IMG/VR virus record: IMGVR_UViG_3300000101_000005
Strand: one strand, 5' to 3'
DNA: 64,000 nt
Source of the DNA: a virus
Taxonomy: Duplodnaviria; Caudoviricetes
This document shows positions 25,190 to 44,918 of the stretch, piece by piece; position 1 is the stretch's first letter, and the number at the start of each line of letters is the position of its first letter. The position numbers were made by a program, and so were the translations under genes. Below the pieces are notes generated by a model. The model saw nothing but the letters and a program-made list of their open reading frames with translations. It did not search any database and was not told the DNA's origin.

Positions 25190-25198
25190 GCTTTATAC

Positions 25199-27006: not shown

Positions 27007-27011
27007 GTAAT

Positions 27012-27590
27012 ATGATTATAGAGAACGATATTGCAACATGGACCGGCGTTATGAGACCCGAAGAATGTGCAGAACTTATTGAATACTACGAAAAATTGAA
27101 CGACTTGCACTTAACTGCTAGTCGACAAACACTAGGAGATAATTCAGCACATAATAAAGCAGACAATGCTGCATTTCTTCTTGAACAACCTGCATTGAAT
27201 ATGTCAACAGACAATCCTACTATACATACTTTTATGAATAGATTTATTGATTGCTGGAAGCAATATACTGCACATTATAGTGTGTTAGGCGAGTGCGGCG
27301 ATCACAGAGTTTACTTTATGAAACTTCAAAAAACCCTTCCAGGAGAAGGATATCATACTTGGCATTTTGAATCAGATACAAAAGAAAGGTCAGGTAGAAT
27401 TGCAGCGTGGGGAATGTATCTTAATACAGTTGACGAAGGCGGAGAAACAGAATGGTTGTATCAGAAGAAGCGTATTGCTGCTACTGAAGGAACCTTAGTT
27501 GTTTGGCCTGCAAGTTACACGCATACTCACAGAGGCAATCCGCCATTGAGTGGTGAAAAATATCTTTTAACAGGCTGGGTTGAGTTTTAA
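27012..27590 (+). CDS. 2OG-Fe(II) oxygenase (prolyl-4-hydroxylase-like)
   Basis: GYHTWHFE, YLNTVDEGGETEW and HTHRGNPPLSGEKYLLTGW. Confidence 0.9.
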   Translation: MIIENDIATWTGVMRPEECAELIEYYEKLNDLHLTASRQTLGDNSAHNKADNAAFLLEQPALNMSTDNPTIHTFMNRFIDCWKQYTAHYSVLGECGDHRVYFMKLQKTLPGEGYHTWHFESDTKERSGRIAAWGMYLNTVDEGGETEWLYQKKRIAATEGTLVVWPASYTHTHRGNPPLSGEKYLLTGWVEF

Positions 27591-28216
27591 TGAAAATAAT
27601 CCCGACGTTTCCAACGGATCTGTTTGAATTTCATAATACCGAGATTGACAACGAACAATTAATCCCCGAACTTGAAAAATACGCAGAGATTGTTAAGTCT
27701 GGCGAAACAATAAGTTCGATGAGAAACTTACACGACAAAGAAGAATTACAACCTTTATTTTCTTGGATTAATAAATGTATTGAAGAAGTTAGAATTTATC
27801 AAAAATATGATTGCGAAGGATTTGCAATTACTAGCAGTTGGTTTAATAGAGCGTTACCACGAGACGGAATGAGATTACATTATCACAGGCATTCAATGAG
27901 TTTTCTTAGTGGTGTGTATTATGTAACTGACGGTAGTCCTACAGTATTTGAAGATCCAGTTAAACATAGAACTGAAGCACAGCTAGAAGTATTAAGACAC
28001 GAACACGCTCCGCATCAGTTTGTAGAAGCAGATCCTGGCAAATTAATATTATTTCCTAGTTGGCTGTTTCATAGTGCAACACCGCATTATGGAAACAAAG
28101 ATAGATATATTATTAGTTTTAATGTAATGCCCACAGGAGCAATTAATTACAATCTTGCAACAGACTCTGTTGCAAACATAGAAATTCATAATAAGGAAAA
28201 GACATATGATCAATAA
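27590..28216 (+). CDS. 2OG-Fe(II) oxygenase (TIGR02466-like, HxH type)
   Basis: HYHRHSMSFLSGVYYV, GKLILFPSWLFHS and RYIISFN. Confidence 0.85.
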   Translation: MKIIPTFPTDLFEFHNTEIDNEQLIPELEKYAEIVKSGETISSMRNLHDKEELQPLFSWINKCIEEVRIYQKYDCEGFAITSSWFNRALPRDGMRLHYHRHSMSFLSGVYYVTDGSPTVFEDPVKHRTEAQLEVLRHEHAPHQFVEADPGKLILFPSWLFHSATPHYGNKDRYIISFNVMPTGAINYNLATDSVANIEIHNKEKTYDQ

Positions 28217-29690
28217 GTTGCTTGTACTAGGTGGTGGCAATGCTGGACTAATGACTGCACTATATCATAAAAAGTCTATTGACAACCTAGACATTACACT
28301 TATCAAATCTGACAAGATTGGTACAATTGGTGTTGGTGAAGGTAGCACTGAACATTGGAAAAGATTCGCTGAGGCAGTTGGTATTACACTAACTGATCTT
28401 GTAAAAGAATGTGGTGCAACTATTAAGATTGGTATTAAGTTTGAGGATTGGCATGGTGACAAAACCAGTTACTATCACAGTTTAGCAGAGCCATATGTAT
28501 ACGCGGATGCATACACAGGCGATGCACATACGCTGATGAGATTAATTTCAGAAGGTGTTGACTCTGAATCGTTGCATTGGGATTTACCTATGCAAGGATG
28601 GTTAAGTCCACCATTTGAAGATTACTATCAGTTTCATTTTGATAGCGAAAAACTAAATGCATTTTTAGAAAAAAGATGTATCGAAGCAGGCATTAACGTT
28701 ATAACTACAGAAGTTGTAGATGTTAACATTGACGCCGGAGGCTTTGTAGAATCTGTAGTTGATGTAGAAAGACGAACACATACCGCAGACTTCTTTATTG
28801 ACAGTAGTGGATTTAAAAGAGTTATTGCCAGTAAACTAGGTGCTGAGTGGGTAGACTGGTCATCATTTTTACCTATGAATAGTGCTATTGCTTTTCAAAC
28901 ATCACGTCAAGAAGATATACCACCTTACACACTTTCTAGAGCATTGAGTGCTGGCTGGCATTGGCGCAGTCCTGTACAAGAACGTTTTGGTAATGGCTAT
29001 GTGTTTAGTGATCAATTTATTTCTGAGGACGAAGCTATTAGAGAAATACAAACATTATTTTCAGATACAATTAATATAGGTAGAAAAATTAACTTTGTTT
29101 CAGGTAAAGTTGATAAGTTTTGGATTAAGAATTGTGTAAGTATTGGACTTAGCAGTAACTTTGTAGAGCCATTAGAAGCAAGTAGTATTTCAACAACCAT
29201 ACAACAGTCAAGAGCATTAGTTGCCTCACTAGCATCTTGGGAACGTAGTGATCAAGCAACTATAAACGAATACAATAGAATATTTGATGATTGTTTAAGC
29301 AATGTACTAGACTTTATTCAATTGCATTACTTTACACAAAGAGAAGATTCAAAGTTTTGGCGCTGGTGTAAAAATGAAATAGAATATACAGATTTTAACA
29401 AACAGAATATAGAAAATTTTAAAAAACAATTTGTAAATCAAATATTATTACCCGAAGATGGGTCGCATGGAAGTTTTAGAATTTACGATAATCTAAATTG
29501 GATACAAGTTATGCATGGATTACGTATGTTTGATATTCCTAGCATTAAAAAATTATACAACGAGCGTTACAGTAAACATCGTGCTGAAGACACAGCACAA
29601 CTATCTTCATTGCCGCAAAGTCCTACTAAAGATTTTGTAAAATGTAGAGAAGCAGTAAACATGTTAAAAGGAATATCTTACTCGCTATGA
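28206..29690 (+). CDS. Flavin-dependent (tryptophan) halogenase homolog 1
   Basis: GGGNAG, IGVGEGS, ATIKIGIKF (catalytic Lys), FFIDSSGF, WHWRSP and FVEPLEASSI. Confidence 0.9.
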   Translation: MINKLLVLGGGNAGLMTALYHKKSIDNLDITLIKSDKIGTIGVGEGSTEHWKRFAEAVGITLTDLVKECGATIKIGIKFEDWHGDKTSYYHSLAEPYVYADAYTGDAHTLMRLISEGVDSESLHWDLPMQGWLSPPFEDYYQFHFDSEKLNAFLEKRCIEAGINVITTEVVDVNIDAGGFVESVVDVERRTHTADFFIDSSGFKRVIASKLGAEWVDWSSFLPMNSAIAFQTSRQEDIPPYTLSRALSAGWHWRSPVQERFGNGYVFSDQFISEDEAIREIQTLFSDTINIGRKINFVSGKVDKFWIKNCVSIGLSSNFVEPLEASSISTTIQQSRALVASLASWERSDQATINEYNRIFDDCLSNVLDFIQLHYFTQREDSKFWRWCKNEIEYTDFNKQNIENFKKQFVNQILLPEDGSHGSFRIYDNLNWIQVMHGLRMFDIPSIKKLYNERYSKHRAEDTAQLSSLPQSPTKDFVKCREAVNMLKGISYSL

Positions 29691-31204
29691 TGATACAATC
29701 TCTAACAGTATTAGGAGGCGGAACAAGCGGATTAGTTTCTGCAATTATGATTAAGAAATCTTTCCCACATATTGATCTTACACTATTGCGTTCATCTAAA
29801 ATTGGAATTATTGGTGTAGGTGAAGGATCAACCGAACACTGGCTAAGTTTTTTAAAGCATTCTGATATTGATGTGCCGACACTTGTAAGAGAAACAGGTG
29901 CTACATTTAAAGTTGGTATTAAGTTTACTAACTGGAATGGTGATGGAAAACATTATTATCATAGTTTAACAGATGCATACGGATCATTAGATCCAAAAAA
30001 CGAAATGCCAATAACATTCATGAGAATGATTGCTGAACAGTGGGATCCTTTAGACACTGCATGGAAACGTAACACACGAGATAGTTCACATGCTGAACCA
30101 TTACACGACACAGTAGCACAATATCATTTTGATACACACAAATTAAATGAGTTTCTTGTTAAAGAATGTAAAAATCGAGATATTAAAGTTTTAGATGTTG
30201 AAATACAAGATGTAATTTTAGATGATACAGGTAACGTTAAAGAGCTAGTTGATGAACAAGGTACAAAACATGCTAGTGAGTTCTTTATTGACTGTAGTGG
30301 ATTTAATAGAGTAATATCAAGTAAACTAGGACAAAAATGGGTAGACTGTTCTCATCAACTTCCTATGAATAGTGCTATTGCATTTCCAACAGCTAGAACT
30401 GAAGACATTCCTTCTTGGACAGAAGCAACTGCATTAAGCAGTGGGTGGTGTTGGAGAATTCCAACACAAGACAGATATGGTAACGGCTATGTGTTTAGTG
30501 ATAATTTTATTAACGAAACACAAGCGTATGACGAAGTATCGCAGTATTATGAAAAACATCTAGGTATCAAAGATTTACAAATAGGAAAACGTGTAAAGTT
30601 TAGTGCTGGGTATGTTAACGAATTTTGGACTAAAAACTGTATGTCATTAGGTCTTAGTGGAATGTTTGTAGAACCATTAGAAGCAAGTTCAATTGGATCA
30701 ACTATTCAGCAAACGTTTTTATTGTTAGGCTCACTTGCATACTATCGAAAAGATTCATCTAGTGCATTAGTAAAAACATTTAACACTAGAATGAATAAAG
30801 TTGCTACTAATATTATTGATTTTATTCAAATTCACTATGTTACTAAAAGAAACGACACTGAGTTTTGGAAGTGGTGTAATCAAAATATTGAACTAACTGA
30901 TTTTAATAAAGATACTCTCGATACATTCAAGGAAGCATTTGTAAGTCCAAGCTATTTTTCAGAGCATCAATTAATGTTTAGTTTTTTTAATTGGTTACAA
31001 GTTATGCACGGATTACATATGTTTGACTATGATTCTGTTAAATCTTTCTGGGAAAAGAACTTTGCTAGTCTACACAACGAACAGATTAAAAGAGTTATCC
31101 ATGAAGGTACTAATACCCGTTCTGACGAAGGTAAAATTTATACCCATAGAGAAGCACTAAACTTACTAAAGGAGAGATATCTTGAAACTACAATCAACCT
31201 CTAA
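29687..31204 (+). CDS. Flavin-dependent (tryptophan) halogenase homolog 2
   Basis: GGGTSG, IGVGEGS, ATFKVGIKF, FFIDCSGF, WCWRIP and FVEPLEASSIG. Confidence 0.92.
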   Translation: MMIQSLTVLGGGTSGLVSAIMIKKSFPHIDLTLLRSSKIGIIGVGEGSTEHWLSFLKHSDIDVPTLVRETGATFKVGIKFTNWNGDGKHYYHSLTDAYGSLDPKNEMPITFMRMIAEQWDPLDTAWKRNTRDSSHAEPLHDTVAQYHFDTHKLNEFLVKECKNRDIKVLDVEIQDVILDDTGNVKELVDEQGTKHASEFFIDCSGFNRVISSKLGQKWVDCSHQLPMNSAIAFPTARTEDIPSWTEATALSSGWCWRIPTQDRYGNGYVFSDNFINETQAYDEVSQYYEKHLGIKDLQIGKRVKFSAGYVNEFWTKNCMSLGLSGMFVEPLEASSIGSTIQQTFLLLGSLAYYRKDSSSALVKTFNTRMNKVATNIIDFIQIHYVTKRNDTEFWKWCNQNIELTDFNKDTLDTFKEAFVSPSYFSEHQLMFSFFNWLQVMHGLHMFDYDSVKSFWEKNFASLHNEQIKRVIHEGTNTRSDEGKIYTHREALNLLKERYLETTINL

Positions 31205-32735
31205 GATTGTTATACTTGGCGGCGGCGTTGCAGGTTGGCTGTCTGCGCTAGTTATTAGAAAAAAGTTTCCATCTATAGAAGTTAGTGTAGTAGAAGATCC
31301 TAATAAGCCTCCTATTATTGCAGGCGAAAGTGGCACTACTACATTTGTTCAGTTATTACAAGACATTGATATTGACTTTGACGACTTTGTTAAACACACA
31401 AAATCTACTCCTAAGATGGGTGGTAGATTTAAAGACTGGAATGGAGTTGGTAGTGAATTTATACATTGTTTACAAACTGATTATGCACCTTGGCTAGACG
31501 GTTGGACTGATACTGAAAAAGCTATGAGTGAGATTACTATTGGTGAATTAAAAAATATTATGGTAGCTGAAAGACAAAAGGATCTATATCAAGCTACTTT
31601 ACTAGGAAACAATGTTCCATTGGCAGATGCATTTTACGCAAACTATTTTATTAAAGAAAACAAAGTTCCTTTTGGCGCAAGTAGAGCTGACTTGCCTATT
31701 ATTCCAATGTGGCATAACGAAAGTAGAGCAACAGCAGCGTATTTAAAATCTATTGCATTACAACGTAACATTGATTTGATAGAAGGCACATATGTTGATG
31801 CAACACAAAACGATAGCGGCGATATAACAAGTTTAGTTTTAGATGACAATCGAACAATAGAAGGAGATTGGTTTGTTGATTGTAGTGGCTTTGCACAACT
31901 ACTAATTAGAAAAAAATTAGGAACAAAATACACTGATTACTCAAAACATTTTACACATAATTCTGTTATTGCATGGTGGGACGAACCTAAATATTCAGTA
32001 ACAACAAATGCAACAGCGATGAAATATGGATGGCGATGGAATATTAATTTGCAGCATAGATCAGGTAACGGTTACATTTACGATAACAACTACATCACAG
32101 CAGATCAAGCATTAGAAGAAGCAAGGAGTGTATGTGGGGAACATATTGAACCTATTGCTTCGTTTACATATACACCCGAAGTAGCAGAAGAAAGCTGGAA
32201 TAACAATGTTATAGCAATTGGTCTTAGTAGTGGATTTTTAGAACCATTAGAAGCAAACGGTATTGCAATCATTTGTGAAAGTTTATTTGCGTTACAAGAC
32301 TTATGGGATCCTACTAGAGGGCGTCACACTGTACAGCAAGAACGATTTAATGACAGAGTATCAGTTGTTTATGATGATATTAAAGATTTTATTGCTTTGC
32401 ATTTTAGAGGAAAAAGAAGCGATACAGATTTTTGGCTAAGCCATATGCACGATCAAGAACGTATTCCAGAATCTTTAAGACAAAAATTAAAACATTGGGA
32501 ATCGTTCTTTTATGGACATTCACCGGTTGAGCCAGTATTTAACGGTTATTCACCAACTGCCTGGATGCAGGTTGTTCAAGGATTAGACATATTTCCTAGT
32601 ACATACTTTACCCAAACATTTGAAGATAAACTAGATATTGGTAAAAACGTGCTAAATACTAATGTAAAACGCTACAAAGAACTTGTGGCTCCATTCTGGA
32701 CTATCGATGAATGGATTAAGAATATTGATAAATAA
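31182..32735 (+). CDS. Flavin-dependent (tryptophan) halogenase homolog 3
   Basis: GGGVAG, IAGES, STPKMGGRF, WFVDCSGF, WRWNIN and FLEPLEANGI; TTG start. Confidence 0.88.
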   Translation: MKLQSTSKIVILGGGVAGWLSALVIRKKFPSIEVSVVEDPNKPPIIAGESGTTTFVQLLQDIDIDFDDFVKHTKSTPKMGGRFKDWNGVGSEFIHCLQTDYAPWLDGWTDTEKAMSEITIGELKNIMVAERQKDLYQATLLGNNVPLADAFYANYFIKENKVPFGASRADLPIIPMWHNESRATAAYLKSIALQRNIDLIEGTYVDATQNDSGDITSLVLDDNRTIEGDWFVDCSGFAQLLIRKKLGTKYTDYSKHFTHNSVIAWWDEPKYSVTTNATAMKYGWRWNINLQHRSGNGYIYDNNYITADQALEEARSVCGEHIEPIASFTYTPEVAEESWNNNVIAIGLSSGFLEPLEANGIAIICESLFALQDLWDPTRGRHTVQQERFNDRVSVVYDDIKDFIALHFRGKRSDTDFWLSHMHDQERIPESLRQKLKHWESFFYGHSPVEPVFNGYSPTAWMQVVQGLDIFPSTYFTQTFEDKLDIGKNVLNTNVKRYKELVAPFWTIDEWIKNIDK

Positions 32736-32755
32736 AGATATAGGAGTTATACAAT

Positions 32756-32914
32756 ATGGCAACTTACAAAATGATTATAAGAAAGGAAATAGGTAAAGCA
32801 CCTATTACCTCGGACACTTGTGAAGCAAAAAACAAAGAAGAAGCATCAAAAATCTTTGAAGAGCGTCACACACCGAAGAAAATCGTTGCAGGCCCAACTA
32901 AAGTCAGCGACTAA
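32756..32914 (+). CDS. 52-aa small protein absent from the ORF track (MATYKMIIRKEIGKAPITSDTCEAKNKEEASKIFEERHTPKKIVAGPTKVSD)
   Basis: ATAAATA motif and AGGAG RBS upstream; its TAA (32912-32914) abuts the stop of the convergent gene at 32915. Confidence 0.7.
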   Translation: MATYKMIIRKEIGKAPITSDTCEAKNKEEASKIFEERHTPKKIVAGPTKVSD

Positions 32915-33541
32915 TTAACGCTTAAATCCAAGCACATCTTTAACGTTCTGCACTTCGTCTTTTATCTCTTGACGAACAAACTCTGCAGGAAGGCCTAGTG
33001 CAAGTTTAGTATCCCACTTTAAATGAGAATAAGGTCCATCAGCTTCCACATACTGTAGGAAAGCCTGTACTATCTTATTACCCTCGTATGGGTTTCGCCA
33101 GTGTTCGTGTCTACGTCCACTGTATATAACAATGTCACCAACATCTAAATTAATTTCGTGTTCAACACCATCTTCATTTTTGATGTATATTGGCCAATTG
33201 TATTCTGGTTCTTTTGATATTGCAACCGACACTGATACTTCAGAACTAGGTCTGTCAAAGTGTTTTTTAAGTTGCGAACCTTTATAATATATTCTAGCAT
33301 AAGAGTAAACTGGTACTAACTCACTTCCCCATTCTTTTGCAACCAAAGGATTTAGTTTTACCATTAATGCTTCAAACATCAAGGGAGCGTATCTCGCAAA
33401 AGTTTTTTCTTCTAGGTCAGATAAGTCAGCACCAGAGTACAATACTTTACAAACTTCTTCCATCATTTCGTACTCTAATGCAAGAAATTCGCAGAGTTCT
33501 GTTGATACTGCGCTTCGTATAATTTTGTAATCTTCTATCAT
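32915..33541 (-). CDS. 2OG-Fe(II) oxygenase
   Basis: YSYARIY, KHFDRPSSEVSVS, GDIVIYSG and HWR. Confidence 0.88.
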   Translation of the reverse strand: MIEDYKIIRSAVSTELCEFLALEYEMMEEVCKVLYSGADLSDLEEKTFARYAPLMFEALMVKLNPLVAKEWGSELVPVYSYARIYYKGSQLKKHFDRPSSEVSVSVAISKEPEYNWPIYIKNEDGVEHEINLDVGDIVIYSGRRHEHWRNPYEGNKIVQAFLQYVEADGPYSHLKWDTKLALGLPAEFVRQEIKDEVQNVKDVLGFKR

Positions 33542-34095
33542 AGCAGTGGCATTAATCCCATATTGCCAAATGGTCTTTCTTCATAGTGTCTAATTAAAGG
33601 ACTGTTTGGTATTGTGTGTACATCAAAACCTATTGTTGTTCTATAACCTTCATATGGTTCTAGTACTTTAACTTCGTGTTCAGCATGTCCTGGTCCAAAA
33701 TATATTTGTCCTGGCTTATTATCAATGGTCCAATTATCAAATATAGTTTGTGTATTTTTAGGATCAATACTAATATATCCATGCCAATCAAAATCATGTC
33801 CGTGCCTTGTTAAACATTCGTCTGGTCTATGATAGTTTAACCATGCTTGTATCCATAGAGGTCTATCCTCACCTAAGTTACTTCTTACAAATGTTCCAAG
33901 CTCTTTATATATGTCATAAAAAATAGTGCTAGGTGCAGTTAGTGCAAATACATTATACAGATTGTAAGACCAGGTGCTTTCATCTTTATCAGGAAATATT
34001 TTCTTAAAAAGAGCATGTGCGTTATCTAAATGATCAGATATCTGAGTCTTATTTTCAATTATATGTTGACTCTGGTGTATGTAGTATTCGCTCAT
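33538..34095 (-). CDS. 2OG-Fe(II) oxygenase-like protein
   Basis: AWLNYH, RHGHDFDWHGYISI, GQIYF, HEV and RTTIGFD. Confidence 0.7.
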   Translation of the reverse strand: MSEYYIHQSQHIIENKTQISDHLDNAHALFKKIFPDKDESTWSYNLYNVFALTAPSTIFYDIYKELGTFVRSNLGEDRPLWIQAWLNYHRPDECLTRHGHDFDWHGYISIDPKNTQTIFDNWTIDNKPGQIYFGPGHAEHEVKVLEPYEGYRTTIGFDVHTIPNSPLIRHYEERPFGNMGLMPLL

Positions 34096-34703
34096 CCTAG
34101 TTGAACCCTATCTAAATTCATGTTAATAACAGCTCTATAGGGTGAATCTTTGCAGAAACTACTTGAATGATAATACTTGCCTGGAAATATAACTACTCTA
34201 CCTTGCTTAGGTTCAATGCGTTGTTTGATTGTAAAATCATTTGATTGAATACGCATAATATCATCTTTACCTGCATCGTAGTCATCGTTTGTTTCATTAA
34301 AGATAACTGTGTCACCATCAGAATCATTAACATAATAAATTGCATTCCAATGCTCAAAGAAGCTGTCTATGTGCGGCATATGGTGGTCTAACGTGCTTGT
34401 TTTATTAGGTAGGGTCAAGTTAGCTCTCATGCGTATTAACCTGTTATACGGCGTCTTAGACGCACTAGTAATGCTTAAAACAAGAGGATATATAAAATTA
34501 AAGTGTTGACTTACTGCTTGTTGTTTTTCGTAAAAGAAGTGATTAAATCCTGCATGATTACTTTCACCTTGAAGTTCTGCATCTGGTGATACCATTGTTT
34601 GGTTAAACACCCAACCAAACTCCCATCCTGTCATTAAACTTTTAATGTGTTCAGAATAATCTTTTGGAATAACATTGTCAATTACTATAATATCGTTGTT
34701 CAT
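34092..34703 (-). CDS. 2OG-Fe(II) oxygenase
   Basis: IIVIDN, PHID, AIYYVNDSDGDT, GRVVIFPG..YHSS and RAVINMN. Confidence 0.88.
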   Translation of the reverse strand: MNNDIIVIDNVIPKDYSEHIKSLMTGWEFGWVFNQTMVSPDAELQGESNHAGFNHFFYEKQQAVSQHFNFIYPLVLSITSASKTPYNRLIRMRANLTLPNKTSTLDHHMPHIDSFFEHWNAIYYVNDSDGDTVIFNETNDDYDAGKDDIMRIQSNDFTIKQRIEPKQGRVVIFPGKYYHSSSFCKDSPYRAVINMNLDRVQLG

Positions 34704-35209
34704 CCTGGATACCTTTGTACTGCTGTGCCATAAAATGTTAGCATCAATGTGTTGTCTGCAAAGTTTGATATTTTATAAGGTACTTGAGGGTTCCAAAGTA
34801 CACATCTATTAAACATATTTTCTATTGACATTGTTTCTATCTGTGTTCTACTATCATAAAATTTAATTCCACTATCAGGGATTAAATTTTCTTTTGTTAA
34901 AAATATAGTTCCTGCAATATTGTAAGATCCTATCATTTTAATTTGATCAACACATTCGCTGCCTATGTTTTGATATTCGGAATGTAAAAATGTAAACTGG
35001 TCTTTTCCAACCACATGCTGAATTAACTTTCCAAGAAGTTTTTCAAACATGTCATGATTAATCACATCTAAACTATTTGAACGTGTACCTAAAAACAACG
35101 AATTATCCTGGTCAACATAGTCTTGCTTATTAGCATGATTAACTACTAGTTGAGGGTTTTCAAAAAAGTTATCAATAACTTTTATAGGTTGTGTAATATT
35201 TCTAATCAT
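34700..35209 (-). CDS. 2OG-Fe(II) oxygenase-fold protein lacking metal ligands (paralog of the adjacent gene)
   Basis: Probable start ATG 35209 via an ATGA overlap. VIDNFF, AGTIFL and NRCVLW align with the neighbouring gene, but the HxD and distal His are missing. Confidence 0.6.
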   Translation of the reverse strand: MIRNITQPIKVIDNFFENPQLVVNHANKQDYVDQDNSLFLGTRSNSLDVINHDMFEKLLGKLIQHVVGKDQFTFLHSEYQNIGSECVDQIKMIGSYNIAGTIFLTKENLIPDSGIKFYDSRTQIETMSIENMFNRCVLWNPQVPYKISNFADNTLMLTFYGTAVQRYPG

Positions 35210-35919
35210 GCTACCCTCGCAAAAAATACCTGTGTTAATCTCGAGTCTTCGAGTGTAGTACCGTAGAAATTTTCTGGACTGTGCCAATTCCTTGTATCAA
35301 ATATAATACAACGATTGTATACACTTTCCATAGTTATTGTTTTTTTAAATTCTGCTACTTGCTGGTTTCTTATTTTATCAAACTTTTCTTTTTGTTCTAC
35401 TTCCACATCAAGAACATCTTCCATAAATGTTTGAGAGTATTTGCTACCATCAAATGTATCATTATCTTCGTAAATAGTGGTACCTGTACCGTTAAACGGT
35501 TCTTTGTTTAGATAAATTACCCCAGCAATATTTAATTTAGGATCATCGTCGTGTACCCATCCACGAGTGTACGATCCGGGTGTAGAATGAAATGCTGATT
35601 GAAATTCATCAAACTCTGTATAACCATAATCATTAAGATATACCATTAACTTTTTTCCAAGTATTTCTAATGTTTCTCTATCAAATTCATGAAGTAACTT
35701 AGTTCTTATTCCAGGCCAGCTACCTCTATTACCTTTAAAAAACTCTAAACCTAGTGCATAATCACGAACAAGGTCGGGCTCGTCATAGAAATTATCAATC
35801 ACCATAGTTGGAAGGTATGGATACTTAAATCTATCTTTAAGATTATGTGATTGAATACTAGACATTGATTGCTTGTCTTGCTCTATTAATTCGTTAATAT
35901 AATCTTGATCAGCCATCAA
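35206..35919 (-). CDS. 2OG-Fe(II) oxygenase-fold protein (DUF6445-like)
   Basis: VIDNFY, WPGIRT, GWVHDD, AGVIYL, GTGT, NRCIIFD...WHS and RLTQVFF. Confidence 0.8.
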   Translation of the reverse strand: MMADQDYINELIEQDKQSMSSIQSHNLKDRFKYPYLPTMVIDNFYDEPDLVRDYALGLEFFKGNRGSWPGIRTKLLHEFDRETLEILGKKLMVYLNDYGYTEFDEFQSAFHSTPGSYTRGWVHDDDPKLNIAGVIYLNKEPFNGTGTTIYEDNDTFDGSKYSQTFMEDVLDVEVEQKEKFDKIRNQQVAEFKKTITMESVYNRCIIFDTRNWHSPENFYGTTLEDSRLTQVFFARVA

Positions 35920-36490
35920 TTTTCCTTGCTGTAAAATTCATAGTCATTACAATCCTTTTTGTAAACACTTTAGGACATGTACTTGCATGATAATGCCTTC
36001 CGTTGAATACTAATACTTTGCCTTGTTGTGGCATACTTTTGTGCATAGGTCTGTATTTTTCTGATTCTTCTGTTTCGTGAAACACAATAGTTTCACCATC
36101 ACACTCATTAACATAGTAACACGCAGTATAATGATCTACATTAAAATCTACATGTGGTGTATTGTGTTGATACCTTACATGTGGCATCATATATTTTGTG
36201 TTAAGCAAAAATCCTAGTCGCATACGTAACACTTGATCTAGTTCTAATCCTGCTTTTGCACAAGTATTTTGTAGCAAGGGAGTAAAAAATTCTAATCCTG
36301 GATTTTCTTTATTGTCAGGATGATACACTAAATTTGCAAAACTAGGGGTAGAGGTATTAATATGATCCTTCTTTTCAAATGTTGTATCTTCCATAAAATG
36401 CCAATCAAAAGTTATGTCAGTTACTACATCAAATATTTGTTTCTGATAATCATGTTCGATTACATTTTCTATTTCAATTGGGTTAAACAT
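35909..36490 (-). CDS. 2OG-Fe(II) oxygenase
   Basis: PHVD, YYVNECDGET, GKVLVFNG..YHAS and RIVMTMN; similar to 34092-34703. Confidence 0.88.
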   Translation of the reverse strand: MFNPIEIENVIEHDYQKQIFDVVTDITFDWHFMEDTTFEKKDHINTSTPSFANLVYHPDNKENPGLEFFTPLLQNTCAKAGLELDQVLRMRLGFLLNTKYMMPHVRYQHNTPHVDFNVDHYTACYYVNECDGETIVFHETEESEKYRPMHKSMPQQGKVLVFNGRHYHASTCPKVFTKRIVMTMNFTARKIDG

Positions 36491-37202
36491 TGTTGATCCT
36501 ATAATAATTTCTATCTACTGCATTTTCCATTGCCTCTGTTGGTAGTTTCTGCCAACACGGAATACTCAGAGATATTCGTTTGCCTTTAGGATACGCACAA
36601 TGATATTGCCTTGATGGAATATATAATGCATCTCCTGGTTCTAATTCTACGTCAATATCTACTTCCATATCCTTGTCATGTAACTTACCATTCATTAACC
36701 CTGTTCTGTGCATGTAAGAAATTTTATTCTTATACACTTTCCATCTAGTTTTTCCTTCTGCTTGAATAATAAAATTACAAGGATAATCATCATGTATTGT
36801 AAAAGACTTAGAATCTTTTAGGCCACAATACACATGTATTGCAGCGTGTACACTAAACATATTTTCAAATACGTTTAGAAAATCCATTGTTTTTTGATTA
36901 TGAAATCCGTAATCTAAACAGATTAATCCATAACCAGCATTTACTTTATCAAATATAAAACCTTTATCTTGTACACCTCTGTCATAAATCCAATTTTTTC
37001 TACTTACAGGTATTTCAATTTTGCTGTTGTCTAGACTTATAAGTTCAAAGTTATAGCGTTCTGTTTTGTTTGTGTGCTGCTCAATGTCTTGCCATGTGAC
37101 TAGTTCACTAGGATCGTCAATCAACTTCTTAAAGAAGTGTGGCTTATCGTCAAACGCTAAGTTTGTTTCGTTAAGTATTCTTCGACTGAAGTCGTTCATC
37201 AT
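36483..37202 (-). CDS. JmjC/cupin-4 domain hydroxylase
   Basis: FTIHDD, NFIIQAEGKTRWKVY, LEPGDALYIPSRQYH and RISLS. Confidence 0.85.
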   Translation of the reverse strand: MMNDFSRRILNETNLAFDDKPHFFKKLIDDPSELVTWQDIEQHTNKTERYNFELISLDNSKIEIPVSRKNWIYDRGVQDKGFIFDKVNAGYGLICLDYGFHNQKTMDFLNVFENMFSVHAAIHVYCGLKDSKSFTIHDDYPCNFIIQAEGKTRWKVYKNKISYMHRTGLMNGKLHDKDMEVDIDVELEPGDALYIPSRQYHCAYPKGKRISLSIPCWQKLPTEAMENAVDRNYYRINNV

Positions 37203-37797
37203 CTGTCCTCACTAACTTAACATTAAAAGATACACTTACTCTATCTTCTTCTGTTTTATTTCTATCAACACCGTGTGGTAACCATCCAGGAAACAATATT
37301 AGTTTACTTGACATTGGTTCAAATGCAATACAAGATGCACTAATTGGAGTATAACTCTGCATTGGTGCTGCTGATGCAATAATAAAGTCTTGCATATGGT
37401 TTTTATAAACATTAATGTTACCCTGCTCGGGTCTTGCACTTACATAATATACACCAGATATAAAAGCGTTATCATGTATATGTACTGAATTTGTGTTGCC
37501 TTGCTTATTAATATTAAACCAAAAGTTTTCCATTAAAGGTGTACAATAGTCTTCATGGTATCCGTAATCACGTATGCAATTATCAACCTGATCCATAATC
37601 ATATCATGTAACGGTTTCATTTCAGCATATGTATCAGGTCTAAAATCTTTTGACTGCCAGCCTCCTTGATTACTTAACTTTCTTCCATCATCATCATCTT
37701 TGTGTAGTTGATAACAAAGTTTTAGCATATCGGTATTATCTAATTGCGTTTGCTCCCACCATACTGGAGTAGGAAAGTATAAATCCATTTGCATCAT
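37171..37797 (-). CDS. 2OG-Fe(II) oxygenase (TIGR02466-like)
   Basis: SNQGGWQS, WFNIN, VHIHDNAFISGVYYV, LILFPGWLPHGV and RVSVSFN. Confidence 0.88.
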   Translation of the reverse strand: MMQMDLYFPTPVWWEQTQLDNTDMLKLCYQLHKDDDDGRKLSNQGGWQSKDFRPDTYAEMKPLHDMIMDQVDNCIRDYGYHEDYCTPLMENFWFNINKQGNTNSVHIHDNAFISGVYYVSARPEQGNINVYKNHMQDFIIASAAPMQSYTPISASCIAFEPMSSKLILFPGWLPHGVDRNKTEEDRVSVSFNVKLVRTDDERLQSKNT

Positions 37798-38600
37798 GAT
37801 ACGGTCCTCAAATCGCCCATTGTAACTTCTGGTGGAAAATCATCTGAAAATGCAAATGTATGGCTCCATCTAAAATCTACACTAGGAGAAACAATTGCAG
37901 CATGACTGATGTCTGCTTTGTACATAGTCATTTTTCCTTCAGTAGATGGTGCAGCACCCATACATTCAAATCCCCATTTACTTAATTCATCGTCTGTCAT
38001 ATTAAACCATGCATCAGAACGTTTAGGTGACTGCGCTAATTCTCTCCATGATTCAAACAAAGGATGTTTTGTATCAAGCTGAAAATCGTATACACAGTTT
38101 TTTACTTCTCCATGATACTTGTATAATTTTGTATTTGAATCCTCAATTGAATGATTAGTAAACCATAAATTAGCAACCAACCCTTTAGGATAATCTACAT
38201 GCGGAAGTCTATAACAAGTAATTGGTTTTGCTCTGTCTTTAAAATAAATATTGCCCCATTCGTGTATTTGAGGATCATACATATTCTCTTCAACGTTTTT
38301 AAGATAAAAATCTCTAATTAAAAAACAAATGTTTTTGTATACCCAGTCTGGTAAGTGTACAGTGTCAAACGGATTAGGATCCATGTTGCCTTCTGCACTG
38401 TTATCTTTAACAATAGGAAAACATTTTACTAAGTTTTTAAATATTTCAAAACCGTCATTATAAAACGGATTGTCTGCAATCCAATACCCAATACCTTGAC
38501 CTAAGTCAACATATTCTGTAGCAAAGTCATCTAGTGACTTTACTTTTAACACTTTATCTATAGTGTTTGCATCAGGGTAACAAATCTTAAAATCCATCAT
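37794..38600 (-). CDS. 2OG-Fe(II) oxygenase-fold protein
   Basis: PHVD, LVANLWF, MTMYKADISHAA and RWSHTF. Confidence 0.7.
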   Translation of the reverse strand: MMDFKICYPDANTIDKVLKVKSLDDFATEYVDLGQGIGYWIADNPFYNDGFEIFKNLVKCFPIVKDNSAEGNMDPNPFDTVHLPDWVYKNICFLIRDFYLKNVEENMYDPQIHEWGNIYFKDRAKPITCYRLPHVDYPKGLVANLWFTNHSIEDSNTKLYKYHGEVKNCVYDFQLDTKHPLFESWRELAQSPKRSDAWFNMTDDELSKWGFECMGAAPSTEGKMTMYKADISHAAIVSPSVDFRWSHTFAFSDDFPPEVTMGDLRTVS

Positions 38601-39199
38601 TTAATATTAATTGTCATTACAATTCTTTCTTTGTCTGTATTGTTAGGTGTAGTAAAATGTTTAAGCCACCCTGGAAAGATAATAACATCTCCTGTTTTAC
38701 ATTCTACTTCACGTAGTGTTTGTGTTTCATTAACTATCGGAAAGCTGCACATCTGATACTCTAACGGATTTCTAAATACAATATTTCCACTGTCAGGTGG
38801 ACATTTTAGGTAGCAACTAGCAACGAATGTGCAATAGTTATGATGGTGTTCTTCAGTATAACCAGATCTATAATGCCTATTAAACCACGATCCCGTTACT
38901 TCTGAATGTCGGTTATAAAAATTTAATTCTTCTTTGATGACTGTTAGTTTATGACCTAACCATTCTTGAAATTCAGCAAGTTCTTGCCACGTGTGTGGAC
39001 TTTGCCATTCGGGGTTTGCTACAGTTGATATAGCGTTGCCTTTTTCTAGAGCCGAGTTATGCTTAACAACATTAAAAACTTCGTCAATAGGTTTTTGTAA
39101 TATGTCTAAAGGAAAGTCGTAAGTATACTTCCATACATAAGGCGAAAAGAGATGAACTCCTCCATCATTATTCTGACTGCTTACCATGCTCTTCCTCAT
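38597..39199 (-). CDS. 2OG-Fe(II) oxygenase (TIGR02466-like)
   Basis: SWFN, EHHH...VASCYL, SGNIVFRNP, GDVIIFPGWLKH and RIVMTIN; exact start uncertain. Confidence 0.85.
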   Translation of the reverse strand: MRKSMVSSQNNDGGVHLFSPYVWKYTYDFPLDILQKPIDEVFNVVKHNSALEKGNAISTVANPEWQSPHTWQELAEFQEWLGHKLTVIKEELNFYNRHSEVTGSWFNRHYRSGYTEEHHHNYCTFVASCYLKCPPDSGNIVFRNPLEYQMCSFPIVNETQTLREVECKTGDVIIFPGWLKHFTTPNNTDKERIVMTINIK

Positions 39200-39434
39200 A
39201 GGTCTCTAAAGCTAAATCTAAACCCATAAGTGTTCCTTCCATTTTTAGTGTATCCATAGAAAGTTCTTGGCGTTTTGCAAAGTCAATAGAAGTAATACCG
39301 TAAGGATTAAGTTTTAGATCTGCAAACTCTGCTTCTAACTTTTTAAGTTCGGCATTTTGTGTTTCGAGGTCAGCTGTTAATTTTATCTTAACAGCAGTAA
39401 GTTTTTTAATATAATTGTTTTCCATATTTGTCAT
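39168..39434 (-). CDS. Small coiled-coil hypothetical protein
   Basis: 88 aa with a heptad-like Leu pattern; overlaps both neighbours. Confidence 0.65.
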   Translation of the reverse strand: MTNMENNYIKKLTAVKIKLTADLETQNAELKKLEAEFADLKLNPYGITSIDFAKRQELSMDTLKMEGTLMGLDLALETYEEEHGKQSE

Positions 39435-40222
39435 CCTTTGTGTTTATACTTATTTAGAATCTTAGAGGATCTCTGTAATCTTGAACCTAAATGATCATCC
39501 TCTAATATTACGCAATTAGCTGCATAATTATAAGCAGCTTCTCGTCTATGATCAGTTTCAGTTGACTCATCAATTATAGCATCATATGAACTATAAAGCA
39601 AGTCCTGTCTTTTTACAGGAATATACTGTGCTAATGGGGTTCCTGCACGGACCAGCGTTTCACCGTCAAGTAATTTCCAAAACAGTTGAACATTTATTAC
39701 ATGCGACTGTGTAGGATCTAGTATTCCGTGTGCTGCTGTAAACCTCGATTCATTGTTATATGTTACCGGCAATTGCAGTAGCAACATATCATCGGAAGCT
39801 TCAATTCTCCATGGAGTTTCAATTTTAATTGTAGTGTGTAATGTGTCTGAAGGATCATCTAATATTGGCATTGTTTGAGACTTGTCATGCGATGCAACAT
39901 AAGATTCTGTATTTGGTAAACCTTTACCAAATTGCATTGGTTCAGCCCATTCAAAAGATGCTCCGTCACCATTTGTTTTAATTTTAAAATCAGCAGGTGC
40001 AGTAATAATCCAACCTGTATTTGCAATCTTTCGTATGCCTGGACATTTAGATACAGGACTAACTCCTGGAGGTGGTACATTTTTAGTAAACGATCTTACT
40101 ATTGACAGTGCTTTTACAGGAGGGAATAAATCCTTTACACCCGGGTATACACTATAAAAACGAATATAAGACTTCTTTTTTTTAAAAAAGTTCTTTATAT
40201 TCTTAATCAAGTTTATGGTCAT
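39431..40222 (-). CDS. Hypothetical protein with a KCPG motif, weakly dUTPase-like at the C-terminus
   Basis: KCPGI...GWIITAPADF, TPWRI, HGILD and VRAGTPLAQYIP; start taken at ATG 40222 (track gives 40234). Confidence 0.55.
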   Translation of the reverse strand: MTINLIKNIKNFFKKKKSYIRFYSVYPGVKDLFPPVKALSIVRSFTKNVPPPGVSPVSKCPGIRKIANTGWIITAPADFKIKTNGDGASFEWAEPMQFGKGLPNTESYVASHDKSQTMPILDDPSDTLHTTIKIETPWRIEASDDMLLLQLPVTYNNESRFTAAHGILDPTQSHVINVQLFWKLLDGETLVRAGTPLAQYIPVKRQDLLYSSYDAIIDESTETDHRREAAYNYAANCVILEDDHLGSRLQRSSKILNKYKHKG

Positions 40223-41819
40223 CCACACCACCATATATATTATCTAGCAGGTATTGATAATGCGTCGGAAGATCTTTAATGTGATCTATAAGAAAGTTTT
40301 TATATTGCTTATACATTCTATCAACAGCACCTACTTCTTCCTCAAGCATTGCTTGTTCGTGATCATATTTGTATAATAGTGAAGGAGTTCCTGTTGGACG
40401 TAGCCCCATACCTGCTGCAATAAAGTTATGCCCAACTAGATCAGCAGTATAACTATGCGCTCCAGCTAAGTTTCCAAACAGATTAGGCCACTGACCTTGT
40501 TTTTGCATTTCGTCGGCATGCATACTCGGGTCGAATTCGTTAAGCTCACTGCACCAGCGCCAGTATGGAGTGTCTTCACGCATTGACATTGCATAGTGTG
40601 CTGCAACAAAGTCTCTAAACTTATTAACATCATATTCAGCCGAGAAGTTAAATCCTTCTCTTTCACTGCCTGTTACAAAACCTTCTCTACGATTCAGAGT
40701 ATCAACTAGTTTAATAATATTTTCGTGTGTTGTTAGTAGTCCTGTTGATTCTAAAGGCTCAACAAATCCGTAACTAAGTCCTACACCTACAACATTACCT
40801 TTCCATGCTCTATGCCTACGACCATGTCTAATCTTAACTTCAAACATTTCTGCCGCTTTAGCAATTTCTGGTGTATGTGTTTCTGCAATATGTTTTCTAA
40901 ACTCTTCTTTCGCTGCTTCAGGTGTTGTAAATCTTGTTGAGTAAACATATCCTGTGCCAATTCTATTCCATAAAGGAATGTTCCAAACCCAGCCGTTACC
41001 AAGTGCAAAGCAATCGGTTACATTGTGCATTTGTTTTTCTCTATCAGTATAAGGAAGTCTACACGCCCAAGCAGCGTCATTTGCTAATGTACCTTCAAAT
41101 GATCTAAAGTGCGATCCCATCCATTGTTCTAATAGTACTGAAGCAAATCCTGTACAATCAATGTACAAATCGCTGTTTAGAATAGTTCCGTCATGGCATA
41201 AAACTTGAGTAATATAATTATTAGTAGGATCTTTCATATGTGAATGAACTTCACCGTATATATGTTTTACACCTAATGGAATTGCAATGTTGTCTTTGAG
41301 ATATTGACCAAACAACTGTGCATCCATATGATAAGCAGTATCTAATTGCCAATTAAAGTTTCTTAGTACACCTTTTTCATTTTTAGTTTCTTTGTTATAC
41401 TCTGCTAGTAGTGTATTACCTGTACAAAAGAATCTAGCATATTCTTCAGGACCATAATCTTCAGGCCTCATTGCAGCTAAGTGCTTCCAATTATCTTCGC
41501 CTGATGGCTTATCAGTAAGATCAAGTCCGTTACTAAAAGGATACTGAAATACTTCACCTTTATTTTCTCTAAAGTTTGTAAACTGAATTGAATTTTTATA
41601 TGTAGCATTACACGCTGCCATCCAATCTTCATCTTTAAGATCAAGTAACTGCATGAATCTATTAATATGCCCAAGTGTACTTTCACCAACACCAACCGTT
41701 CCAATTGATTTGGATTCGATCAATGTTACTTCTAAATGTGGGCAACATTTAGCTAGTGCTGCTGCTGTCATCCAACCAGACGACCCACCGCCTACAATTG
41801 TTACTGTTTTATATCTCAT
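40203..41819 (-). CDS. Flavin-dependent (tryptophan) halogenase homolog 4
   Basis: GGGSSG, VGVGES, ATYKNSIQF, AYHMDA, LYIDCTGF, WVWNIP and FVEPLESTGL. Confidence 0.93.
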   Translation of the reverse strand: MRYKTVTIVGGGSSGWMTAAALAKCCPHLEVTLIESKSIGTVGVGESTLGHINRFMQLLDLKDEDWMAACNATYKNSIQFTNFRENKGEVFQYPFSNGLDLTDKPSGEDNWKHLAAMRPEDYGPEEYARFFCTGNTLLAEYNKETKNEKGVLRNFNWQLDTAYHMDAQLFGQYLKDNIAIPLGVKHIYGEVHSHMKDPTNNYITQVLCHDGTILNSDLYIDCTGFASVLLEQWMGSHFRSFEGTLANDAAWACRLPYTDREKQMHNVTDCFALGNGWVWNIPLWNRIGTGYVYSTRFTTPEAAKEEFRKHIAETHTPEIAKAAEMFEVKIRHGRRHRAWKGNVVGVGLSYGFVEPLESTGLLTTHENIIKLVDTLNRREGFVTGSEREGFNFSAEYDVNKFRDFVAAHYAMSMREDTPYWRWCSELNEFDPSMHADEMQKQGQWPNLFGNLAGAHSYTADLVGHNFIAAGMGLRPTGTPSLLYKYDHEQAMLEEEVGAVDRMYKQYKNFLIDHIKDLPTHYQYLLDNIYGGVDDHKLD

Positions 41820-41876
41820 TTTTAATCCTTTGGTAATATATACTACTATTATTTATCTGCATACATAGAGCCATCA

Positions 41877-43403
41877 CTAGTGGAATTGGCTATAATATTC
41901 CAGAGATGTTGGAAACGCATCTGTAATTTGTTGCTTTTCTTTGTTATTATTATCAATGATTTGCTGTAAATCTTTAACTCTATTATCAAACTCTACGTTC
42001 CAAAAATGCATATTACTATGTTTAAAGCTAGTATATGGGTTTATTTTATGCCCTGCTAACATGTAAATGTTAGCGCCTAATGTGTTAAATGATAGTTTTT
42101 CTTCTACGTTAAAGAATTGAGACCCTCGTAGTTCGTAAATTTCTTTTAGTAGTGGGCTATTGTTAAAGTCTTGTTGTTGTATATCTCGCCAATATTGGGT
42201 GTCGTCTCGGTTAGTCATAGCATAGTGCAACGTAATAAAATCTGCAAAGTATAAAAACTGTTCACGACACGTATGATTAAATGACTGTGCATCAAAGTTG
42301 TTTAATGCATCTTTACCTTCTGCAATGTTTACAAAGTTTAATAAGAATTCATGGACACTCATTAATCCATTAGATTCTAGCGGTTCAATAAATGCGCCAG
42401 CAAGTCCAATACTTATGCAGTTCTTAACCCATAGGCGTTTACTCATACCATTACGCATACGTATGTGCTTAAATTCCATTTCTTCTGCAACTGGGCCTAA
42501 GTAATCTTTAAACTCTTGTAATGCTTCTTCTTTACTAGTATACTTACTAGCATAGTTATATCCAGTACCAATACGTTCCCAAGTTGGTATTTCCCAAACC
42601 CAACCGTATCCTAGTGCGACAGAATTGGTATATAACCGTAATTCTTTTTCTTTATCTTTATAAGGTCTAGCTGCGGCCCAAGCACAATCGGTATAAGTTT
42701 TATTATTAAACTCCCCCCAAGGTTCTTCTAGTACACCTTCGATTAATGCACGTTTAAACCCTGTACAGTCAAAAAATAAATCTCCAGTAATTGTTCCGTT
42801 ATCTGTATCTAAACTTGTAATATAGCCGTTTTCGTCAGTTTGTGCGCCATTAACATCTGTGACTACATGTACTACACCTTTTGGCAAACAATATTCATCA
42901 CGCAAATATGCATAAAATTTATGTGTATCAAAGTGCCATGCTGCGTCTTTTTGTAATGACCAAATACCATCACCAAACATAGTAACCGGAACTTTATTTG
43001 AATCTAAACATTGTGAGATAGGAGACATATCGTTAACTAAATCTTCAAAAGGTACTTTAGTAAGATATTGATGTTGAAACCATTCTGCTACATTAAAGAA
43101 TCTCTGATCTAATCTACCAAATGGATAATGAAATCCTACTTTATCGTTTTTGTGAAAGTTTTCAAATCGGATACTTAGCTTGTTAATAGCATTACATTTT
43201 TTGATAAAATCAATATCAGGTATTCCTAAATACTCTTGCCATCTACGCATAAGTTGCGTAGTACTTTCGCCAACTCCTATTACAGGCTTTGTTGGTGATT
43301 CAACTATTGTAATGTTTTTGTTAGGAAATGCTTTTACCATAGTGGCGGCCGTCATCCAACCTGCACTTCCGCCTCCCACAACTACAATATTCTTAAATTC
43401 CAC
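41877..43403 (-). CDS. Flavin-dependent (tryptophan) halogenase homolog 5
   Basis: GGGSAG, IGVGES, AINKLSIRF, AWHFDT, LFFDCTGF, WVWEIP and FIEPLESNGL; GTG start. Confidence 0.93.
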   Translation of the reverse strand: MEFKNIVVVGGGSAGWMTAATMVKAFPNKNITIVESPTKPVIGVGESTTQLMRRWQEYLGIPDIDFIKKCNAINKLSIRFENFHKNDKVGFHYPFGRLDQRFFNVAEWFQHQYLTKVPFEDLVNDMSPISQCLDSNKVPVTMFGDGIWSLQKDAAWHFDTHKFYAYLRDEYCLPKGVVHVVTDVNGAQTDENGYITSLDTDNGTITGDLFFDCTGFKRALIEGVLEEPWGEFNNKTYTDCAWAAARPYKDKEKELRLYTNSVALGYGWVWEIPTWERIGTGYNYASKYTSKEEALQEFKDYLGPVAEEMEFKHIRMRNGMSKRLWVKNCISIGLAGAFIEPLESNGLMSVHEFLLNFVNIAEGKDALNNFDAQSFNHTCREQFLYFADFITLHYAMTNRDDTQYWRDIQQQDFNNSPLLKEIYELRGSQFFNVEEKLSFNTLGANIYMLAGHKINPYTSFKHSNMHFWNVEFDNRVKDLQQIIDNNNKEKQQITDAFPTSLEYYSQFH

Positions 43404-43465
43404 TATAAGTCCTTTGATAGATTATATGCTACTATTATTTAGTTGGGTGTGAGAGGTGTAGAAAT

Positions 43466-44917: not shown

Positions 44918-44918
44918 T

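Follow-up and report, generated by a model that had tools for sequence, protein, structure and literature searches.

Clusters in which several oxygenases are encoded together with halogenases have been described in marine cyanophages. In Syn9, it has been reported that ten tandem dioxygenase genes from at least five families, among them a MINA/NO66-like JmjC protein (gp49), are accompanied by two tryptophan halogenases and by a protein of the dUTPase fold in which a cysteine is conserved (Iyer et al., 2010; PMC2938197). VirX1, the iodinating halogenase of the cyanophage Syn10 (PDB 6QGM), has an unusually large and open active site and halogenates many small aromatics in vitro (PMC8407142). Here, we analyzed a 64,000-nucleotide stretch of viral DNA, the IMG/VR record IMGVR_UViG_3300000101_000005 (hereafter the window), which contains at positions 27012-43403 an island of flavin-dependent halogenase and 2-oxoglutarate (2OG)-Fe(II)/JmjC-type oxygenase genes. 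As judged from its sequence, this island is almost certainly an enlarged Syn9-type dioxygenase-halogenase module and not a new kind of system, and its enzymes may act on the phage's own fibre proteins. The background considered as established in a preliminary description of this DNA, in which such genes were scattered among T4-like marine phages, was incomplete, the clustered arrangement having been published for Syn9 in 2010 (PMC2938197) and VirX1 itself sitting within it.

The island is composed of 20 genes forming two convergent and mostly overlapping strings, with five intact halogenase genes and twelve oxygenase-type genes, one of which lacks the metal ligands. The plus string consists of six genes:

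27012-27590, plus strand: A, 2OG-FeII_Oxy_3 protein of the prolyl-hydroxylase type (Pfam, 5.7e-10), with conserved H..H.E.D and H.HRG
27590-28216, plus strand: B, 2OG-FeII_Oxy_5 protein (Pfam, 5.1e-16)
28206-29690, plus strand: HAL1, flavin-dependent halogenase of the solitary cyanophage 'PrnA' clade (Pfam, 1.2e-105; motifs; tree)
29687-31204, plus strand: HAL2, flavin-dependent halogenase, 45% identical to HAL1 (Pfam, blastp, motifs, tree)
31182-32735, plus strand: HAL3, divergent flavin-dependent halogenase with a TTG start behind AAGGAG and a WxWxIN motif
32756-32914, plus strand: s52, conserved 52-residue protein whose stop abuts that of the minus arm

The minus string is given in order of transcription, with the corresponding Syn9 proteins:

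41877-43403, minus strand: HAL5, accessory halogenase of the Syn9 gp41 clade, with a GTG start
40203-41819, minus strand: HAL4, VirX1 orthologue (full-length match to PDB 6qgm) and Syn9 gp42 orthologue
39431-40234, minus strand: M, dUTPase-fold protein with an invariant Cys, Syn9 gp43 orthologue
39168-39434, minus strand: s88, conserved 88-residue protein with an invariant KLNPYGITSIDF core, Syn9 gp44 orthologue
38597-39199, minus strand: L, 2OG-FeII_Oxy_5 protein (Pfam), Syn9 gp45 orthologue
37794-38600, minus strand: K, DUF6445-related protein (phrog_1644, 1.5e-20) with conserved PHxD...H, Syn9 gp46 orthologue
37171-37797, minus strand: J, 2OG-FeII_Oxy_5 protein (Pfam, 3.7e-23), Syn9 gp48 orthologue
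36483-37202, minus strand: I, JmjC_2 protein of the MINA/NO66/YcfD type (Pfam, 8.4e-18), 48.5% identical to Syn9 gp49, its orthologue
35909-36490, minus strand: H, oxygenase related to E, Syn9 gp51 orthologue
35206-35916, minus strand: G, DUF6445-type oxygenase (Pfam, 1.4e-13), Syn9 gp52 orthologue
34700-35209, minus strand: F, DUF6445-type paralogue of G without the metal His/Asp, with an ATG start at 35209
34092-34703, minus strand: E, 2OG-FeII_Oxy_5/Oxy_3 protein (Pfam), Syn9 gp53 orthologue
33538-34095, minus strand: D, divergent Oxy_5-like protein (phrog_81, 3e-5) with conserved HxH...H, Syn9 gp47 orthologue
32915-33541, minus strand: C, prolyl-hydroxylase-like double-stranded beta-helix (DSBH) protein with an invariant HxD...H (AlphaFold2 model), Syn9 gp54 orthologue

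The two strings meet at abutting stop codons (32912-32914 for s52 and 32915-32917 for C), and 15 of the 17 gene junctions are overlaps, eight of them ATGA. This architecture had been read correctly in the preliminary description, as had the enzyme count, which is supported by Pfam matches, motifs, profiles and orthology with the proviso that F lacks the His/Asp ligands; three conserved genes, s52, s88 and the dUTPase-fold gene M, were left unlisted. The statement that no flavin reductase, non-ribosomal peptide synthetase (NRPS) or polyketide synthase (PKS) is present also holds for the window open reading frames scanned. The flavin reductase family PF01613 is absent both from these frames and from the records (129-278 kb) of five relatives, and no scaffold-making enzyme that would assign the island to NRPS, PKS or ribosomally synthesized and post-translationally modified peptide (RiPP) pathways is encoded in the scanned window frames or in the relatives' islands. 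The island is richer in AT than its flanks (GC of 0.33-0.37 versus 0.38-0.46), all its genes are under purifying selection (ratio of non-synonymous to synonymous substitution rates, dN/dS, of 0.05-0.32), and a DNA search with the island against cultured phages returned no match.

At the protein level, the relationship with Syn9 is extensive. The minus arm, taken together with the two adjoining features listed below, is orthologous to and collinear with Syn9 gp38-gp54, with pairwise protein identities of 25-68%; within it, HAL4, M, s88 and then ten oxygenase-type genes are collinear with gp42-gp54.

43522-44031, minus strand: o169, Trp- and Pro-rich protein of 169 residues found at the head of every cluster, Syn9 gp40 orthologue
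44063-46643, minus strand: three paralogous Gly_rich_2 fibre-tip genes, orthologues of Syn9 gp38 and gp39

The same cluster order is found in the cyanophages S-CREM1, P-TIM40 and S-RIM44. The hallmarks of the Syn9 cluster, i.e., tandem oxygenases of several unrelated families including a MINA/NO66-like JmjC protein, accompanied by Trp-type halogenases, are all found in the window. Syn9- and Syn10-type clusters and the window thus share the Gly-rich tips, gp40/o169, the halogenase(s), gp43, gp44/s88 and about ten oxygenases in matching order, as well as a TAAATA motif at the same two places. In contrast to these clusters, the window copy has a convergent arm, encodes five halogenases instead of one or two and twelve oxygenase-type genes instead of five to ten, sets o169 apart from the enzymes with a terminator and separate promoters, and belongs to a phage outside the Kyanoviridae. 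Because the minus arm is collinear with Syn9 while HAL1-HAL3 fall in another halogenase clade, the island consists of a known module and an additional arm. This plus arm, with two oxygenases, three halogenases of the 'solitary PrnA' clade and s52, is new and specific to this uncultured marine lineage.

All five halogenases match the Trp_halogenase family (PF04820) with E-values of 1e-90 to 1e-105 (303-354 bits for a cut-off of 21). Their alignment revealed that each retains the N-terminal GGGxxG, the catalytic Lys, a WxWxIP-type motif and the Glu of EPLE, the invariant columns including G9-G14, K74 (equivalent to PrnA K79) and E321/E324. WxWxIP is exact in HAL2, HAL4 and HAL5, and becomes WxWxSP in HAL1 and WxWxIN in HAL3. 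With pairwise identities of 25-45%, these enzymes are old paralogues and not recent copies. HAL4 is the VirX1 orthologue: it matches VirX1 over its full length (E-value of 8.4e-190), falls in the same clade (support 98/99), occupies the same position in the cluster and is 53% identical to Syn9 gp42. It is the only VirX1-type enzyme among the five, and its likeness to VirX1 is known from sequence. HAL1-HAL3 group in the tree with the solitary 'PrnA' genes of P-SSM2 and S-SCSM2R, two phages in which the halogenase stands alone, outside any such cluster. HAL5 is considered accessory since most relatives lack it. In one IMG/VR contig (L067), a HAL5 copy 89% identical to that of the window is located at the opposite, upstream end of the island, whose other genes are 35-62% identical to those of the window; this suggests that this one halogenase gene was recently transferred. 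The reduced flavin required by the halogenases is assumed to be supplied by a host reductase.

Seven of the twelve oxygenase-type genes score above Pfam cut-offs (those at 27012, 27590, 34092, 35206, 36483, 37171 and 38597). They belong to Oxy_3 (27012), Oxy_5 (27590, 34092, 37171 and 38597), DUF6445 (35206) and JmjC_2 (36483), the last being a family of ribosomal oxygenases that includes YcfD, MINA53 and NO66. The metal-binding residues, HxD/E (or HxH)...H, are kept across orthologues in 11 of the twelve genes. The remaining gene, F, is tied to its neighbour G by profile alignment (hhalign, 99.8%); since it has lost the metal ligands that its paralogue keeps, it is probably a pseudoenzyme and may play a non-catalytic role. 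Despite this loss, F is conserved, with a dN/dS of about 0.3.

The other genes were assigned by different routes. H is linked to E (blastp, 1e-23; hhalign, 99.9%), and its 'endonuclease V' label was rejected as a misannotation. D and K were assigned on the basis of PHROG matches, the conservation of metal-binding motifs and their orthology with Syn9 gp47 and gp46, respectively. C has no Pfam match; its AlphaFold2 model is of high confidence (predicted local distance difference test, pLDDT, of 91) and its top Foldseek matches are the Pseudomonas putida prolyl 4-hydroxylase (P4H) PPHD and PHD2, AlkB-type enzymes being also retrieved. The label 'ferrochelatase' that C bears in phage databases was likewise rejected, the model being prolyl-hydroxylase-like and HxD...H invariant. 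C was the one oxygenase modelled and its model shows the DSBH fold, the fold of the others being predicted from Pfam or PHROG matches and the literature (PMC2938197). The relatives of J in the PDB, 2rg4 and 3bvc, are both without assigned function. In hhalign comparisons of small family alignments, A, C, D, K and M were not linked to other oxygenases.

The proposed connection between the enzymes and fibre genes turned out to be stronger than the preliminary description could know. The order Gly/His-rich tip, o169, halogenase, oxygenases is found in Syn9, S-CREM1, P-TIM40 and S-RIM44, and o169 heads the cluster in all four of these cyanophages, whose annotation was read. Similarly, proceeding outward from the fibre tip, o169 and a halogenase are encountered in 56 of 56 informative viral contigs, i.e., those with at least 3 kb downstream of the tip, all from the window's own lineage. 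In addition, in each of the 20 INPHARED records in which o169 has a homologue, a JmjC homologue is placed a few kb from it by the listed coordinates. The flank beyond the oxygenases varies, with small genes in Syn9, neck genes in S-RIM44 and the second arm in the window, so that the tip/o169 side is the only constant neighbour. On the right-hand side, the relatives have a constant flank, in which o169 and the three Gly-rich tip genes are accompanied by two small genes and by two giant fibre genes. The fibre genes on the left (21019-26926), which had also been cited as flanking the island, are missing or non-adjacent in distant relatives; not being conserved neighbours, they provide no evidence for a fibre link.

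The tip proteins contain Gly_rich_2 domains with 25% Gly and 4-5% His, and are unusually conserved (60-74% identity versus about 40-67% for core virion proteins). Each holds a single Trp, a point that does not support the earlier interpretation, and five Trp-type halogenases are thus left with no obvious target in the tips. The protein o169 contains eight Trp residues and has a conserved W/Y-rich C-terminal tail after a variable linker. Co-folding of o169 with a fibre tip gave a score of 0.57 versus 0.00 for the best control, with a partner pLDDT of at least 76 and at least 72% of contacts shared between runs. The mark used is reached by 58 of 80 solved complexes and two of 110 mismatches, and passes at or below 0.60 are more often wrong than right, so that the model only weakly suggests an o169-tip contact. 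The number of tip paralogues (1-3) did not follow that of the halogenases or oxygenases in the few lineages compared.

The island genes also share a promoter motif with virion genes. TAAATA occurs at 52 sites in the window, 16 of which lie 0-60 nt upstream of a start codon on the same strand versus about 1.5 expected, an approximately tenfold enrichment, and it also precedes the terminase, tail tube and fibre genes. Around the island, the following elements were located:

27001-27006, plus strand: TAAATA before A, 5 nt upstream of the ATG
32729-32734, plus strand: TAAATA before s52, kept in 21 of 24 distinct relatives
39451-39456, minus strand: TAAATA before s88, also found before gp44 in Syn9 and S-CREM1
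41850-41855, minus strand: TAAATA before HAL4, present in five of five distant relatives
43436-43441, minus strand: TAAATA before HAL5, from the motif scan
43466-43490, minus strand: intrinsic terminator, a clean GC hairpin followed by a T-run, which closes the fibre-tip/o169 unit

Both strings thus begin at TAAATA and a terminator lies upstream of HAL5, as first described, the motifs before HAL4, s88 and s52 being additional. In four cyanophages, TAAATA precedes o169/gp40 and there is no gap between gp40 and the halogenases. The T4 late promoter is the model for late motifs of this type and, given the likeness of TAAATA to it, the island genes are probably expressed late. The late control advanced previously is therefore upheld as regards the motif, which is common to virion genes and recurs before the VirX1-type halogenase and before o169/gp40, the timing itself being deduced from that motif. 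Metatranscriptome contigs from four marine or aquatic RNA libraries span parts of the island, o169 and the tips; as they are silent on strand, timing and level and may reflect DNA carry-over, they were not counted as evidence of expression. Neither an expression class nor virion detection of cluster genes was found in the published supplementary data examined.

Further details of these upstream regions were observed. The spacing of exactly 5 nt between TAAATA and the start codon seen for A (27001-27014) recurs for the terminase, o193, tail tube and o111 genes (7025-7041, 8763-8779, 11196-11212 and 15384-15397). The regions upstream of HAL4 and HAL5 (41836-41856 and 43422-43442, minus strand) share a block of about 20 nt, TAAATAATAGTAG[C/T]ATATA, and a related ATATATAGTA element precedes gene A in several distant relatives that have no TAAATA there. 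This TAAATAATAGTAG/ATATATAGTA block is possibly a second promoter element.

Among the three conserved genes that do not encode oxygenases or halogenases, M is 49% identical to gp43 and possesses an invariant cysteine (C64). Its structural model is of low confidence (pLDDT of 52), and its 50 best Foldseek matches are all trimeric dUTPases; its profile found no match among PDB sequences. The small protein s52 is characterized by the conserved pattern TYKMILR...CEA...FEERHG...VAGP.KV and contains no Trp. Together with o169, these three proteins have no telling match in Pfam and none in NCBIfam; no PHROG family was found for s52 and s88, while o169 and M match only PHROG families without assigned function. 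The possibility that s52 and s88 are RiPP precursors, with a leader and a variable core, was considered and rejected, both being conserved from end to end like folded proteins and s52 lacking Trp.

The source phage belongs to the T4 superfamily and is a marine, as yet uncultured, myovirus; it possesses UvsX, gp32, terminase, sheath and tube genes. It lies outside the Kyanoviridae, its terminase being at most 52% identical to that of any isolate and its nearest isolates being PA5oct-like jumbo phages. Nearly identical DNA occurs in no fewer than 14 metagenome runs from seawater or marine samples, and IMG/VR contains 113 contigs with a HAL1 relative. The gene order of the island does not vary among the contigs that are of sufficient length for it to be judged, with protein identities down to 45-60%, and five long relatives (records of 129-278 kb, CheckV completeness of 36-75%) have four or five halogenases in the same layout. 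Throughout these relatives, each island gene is a stable one-to-one orthologue. As stable one-to-one orthologues under purifying selection, the paralogues do not fit the combinatorial use that had been envisaged for them.

The segment 27012-39434, compared with two of these relatives (L008 and L021), is a gene-scale recombination mosaic, in which co-circulating phages appear to have reassorted diverged allele classes of the individual genes. Relative to L008, A, HAL1, C, H and I are 92-99% identical (synonymous divergence, dS, of 0.1-0.5), whereas B, HAL2, HAL3, F, G, K, L and s88 are 66-79% identical (dS of 0.9-1.3); relative to L021, this pattern is largely reversed. Elsewhere in the window, an 839-residue fibre-like protein (22670-25189, minus strand) contains a subtilase (Peptidase_S8) domain (E-value of 1e-22) and is present only in some close relatives. 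Residues 353-422 of a 575-residue fibre protein (25199-26926, minus strand) match the ubiquitin-E1 FCCH domain model (E-value of 3.6e-8). Genes for a TnsA-like endonuclease, an HNH endonuclease and a deoxynucleoside monophosphate (dNMP)-kinase-like protein (9272-9721, minus strand; 15395-15730, plus strand; and 15713-16333, minus strand) are found among the tail and neck genes.

Regarding the function of the module, we tentatively favour, with a probability of roughly 0.4, that its enzymes modify the phage's own fibre proteins, the choice of substrate being a guess from gene context. In this mechanism, the island genes would be transcribed late from TAAATA promoters along with the virion genes, and the enzymes would act intracellularly on freshly synthesized tail-fibre proteins. 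The first candidate substrates would be the three Gly/His-rich tip proteins and the adjoining Trp-rich o169, with the giant fibres as further candidates. The DSBH/JmjC enzymes would hydroxylate side chains, family precedents being His or Arg for MINA/NO66/YcfD-type and Pro for P4H-type enzymes, while the halogenases would use host-reduced flavin and seawater halide on Trp or Tyr. The outcome would be chemically altered fibre tips. This interpretation is ranked first because 1) the gene context is constant and the late-type promoter shared, 2) scaffold and export genes are lacking in all of the more than 100 islands and 3) protein-hydroxylase families (JmjC_2 and the P4H-like fold) are represented and the active site of VirX1 is open (PMC8407142). 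Tail-collar and Gly-rich proteins have also been proposed as substrates of co-encoded dioxygenases in bacterial operons (Iyer et al.; PMC2938197).

There is precedent for such activities in viruses. The collagen prolyl hydroxylase of PBCV-1 (vCPH), which is among the structural matches of C, is a viral 2OG oxygenase that acts on the virus's own Gly/Pro-rich repeat proteins. The collagen lysyl hydroxylase of mimivirus similarly modifies Gly/Pro-rich repeat proteins of the virus itself. However, these are single enzymes from eukaryotic viruses acting on collagen repeats, whereas the window encodes twelve oxygenases together with halogenases and its tips are made of Gly_rich_2 domains and not of collagen triplets.

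Several points weigh against modification of the fibres. To our knowledge, virion modification has been measured in no cluster-carrying phage. T4-like structural gene order is kept by descent, and adjacency is thus weaker evidence here than in bacteria. The tips offer one Trp each for five Trp-type halogenases. Other cyanophages, such as Syn30, carry single members of these oxygenase families in their replication regions, so that the families are not tied to fibres. In the window, o169 is separated from the enzymes by the terminator and by separate promoters. Late timing, deduced from a motif, would suit equally well a metabolite made before lysis, and the Syn9 cluster itself was taken by Iyer et al. 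for a system of secondary-metabolite synthesis (PMC2938197).

The latter proposal leads to a serious, although rather unlikely, alternative, in which the enzymes start from free Trp, Tyr or His, or else from a small metabolite or peptide of the host, and turn it into a compound bearing many hydroxyl and halogen groups. Such a product would be formed late and would either leave at lysis or stay within the cell. Beyond the interpretation published for Syn9 (PMC2938197), this alternative is consistent with the activity of the characterized halogenase relatives PrnA, PyrH, RebH, Thal and BrvH on free Trp or indole, with that of VirX1 on many small aromatics in vitro (PMC8407142) and with the near absence of Trp from the fibre tips. 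A fixed set of one-to-one orthologues is, moreover, what a multi-step pathway predicts. Bacterial neighbourhoods combining JmjC and classical 2OG oxygenases with one to three Trp-type halogenases, SapC and a TonB receptor resemble the phage set and siderophore pathways alike (PMC2938197). Unlike these bacterial sets, which carry a receptor and were read as siderophore-like, the phage set is fibre-linked and lacks both a receptor and a transporter. In none of the more than 100 islands examined was an NRPS, a PKS, an ATP-grasp enzyme, a transporter or another scaffold or export gene found, and twelve oxygenases are many for one amino-acid scaffold. A small-molecule product would also leave unexplained the constant pairing of the enzymes with the fibre-tip and o169 genes, on which the assignment to fibre proteins is built.

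It is improbable that the targets are host proteins, e.g., the ribosome or EF-Tu, modified late in infection in order to keep translation or other functions serving the phage. JmjC_2 is indeed a family of ribosomal oxygenases, the best structural match of C is a Pseudomonas P4H solved with EF-Tu, and solitary members of these families are located in early or replication regions of other cyanophages. Nevertheless, a take-over role is ill-suited to late-type promoters and fibre linkage, the halogenases have no precedent on host machinery, and it would be left unexplained why all complete clusters examined follow fibre-tip genes. Finally, a role in general physiology, such as drawing down 2-oxoglutarate when nitrogen is short or repairing nucleic acids in the manner of AlkB, has been proposed for cyanophage 2OG oxygenases (PMC3037559). 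Such a role, with the halogenases as unrelated passengers, is very improbable here, with at least ten distinct oxygenase families kept in fixed order with halogenases across deep divergence, purifying selection on each gene, and no match to the AlkB or TET/JBP family models of Pfam among the island's oxygenase-type genes.

VirX1 is a well-known biocatalyst without a known natural substrate. For some fifteen years, the 2OG oxygenases of cyanophages have likewise figured among the 'auxiliary metabolic genes' with no role attributed to them. The gene context described here offers a testable guess at the target of a viral halogenase. As a number of cultivated cyanophage genera and a distinct, abundant marine lineage share the context of tip and Trp-rich partner, the question is open to experiment on phages that can be grown, such as Syn9, S-CREM1 and P-TIM40. 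It is possible, though we hold it to be unlikely, that the module is devoted to the maturation of the phage's own receptor-binding fibre tips, through their hydroxylation and halogenation. If so, it would provide the first enzymatically halogenated virion protein and a natural role for VirX1-type enzymes, and the three extra halogenases of the added arm would widen the chemistry available to this lineage. Halogenation of virion proteins, if it occurs, would be a new kind of phage surface chemistry, bearing on host recognition and on marine halogen cycling; should the product instead be a small organohalogen, phages would count among the sources of these compounds.

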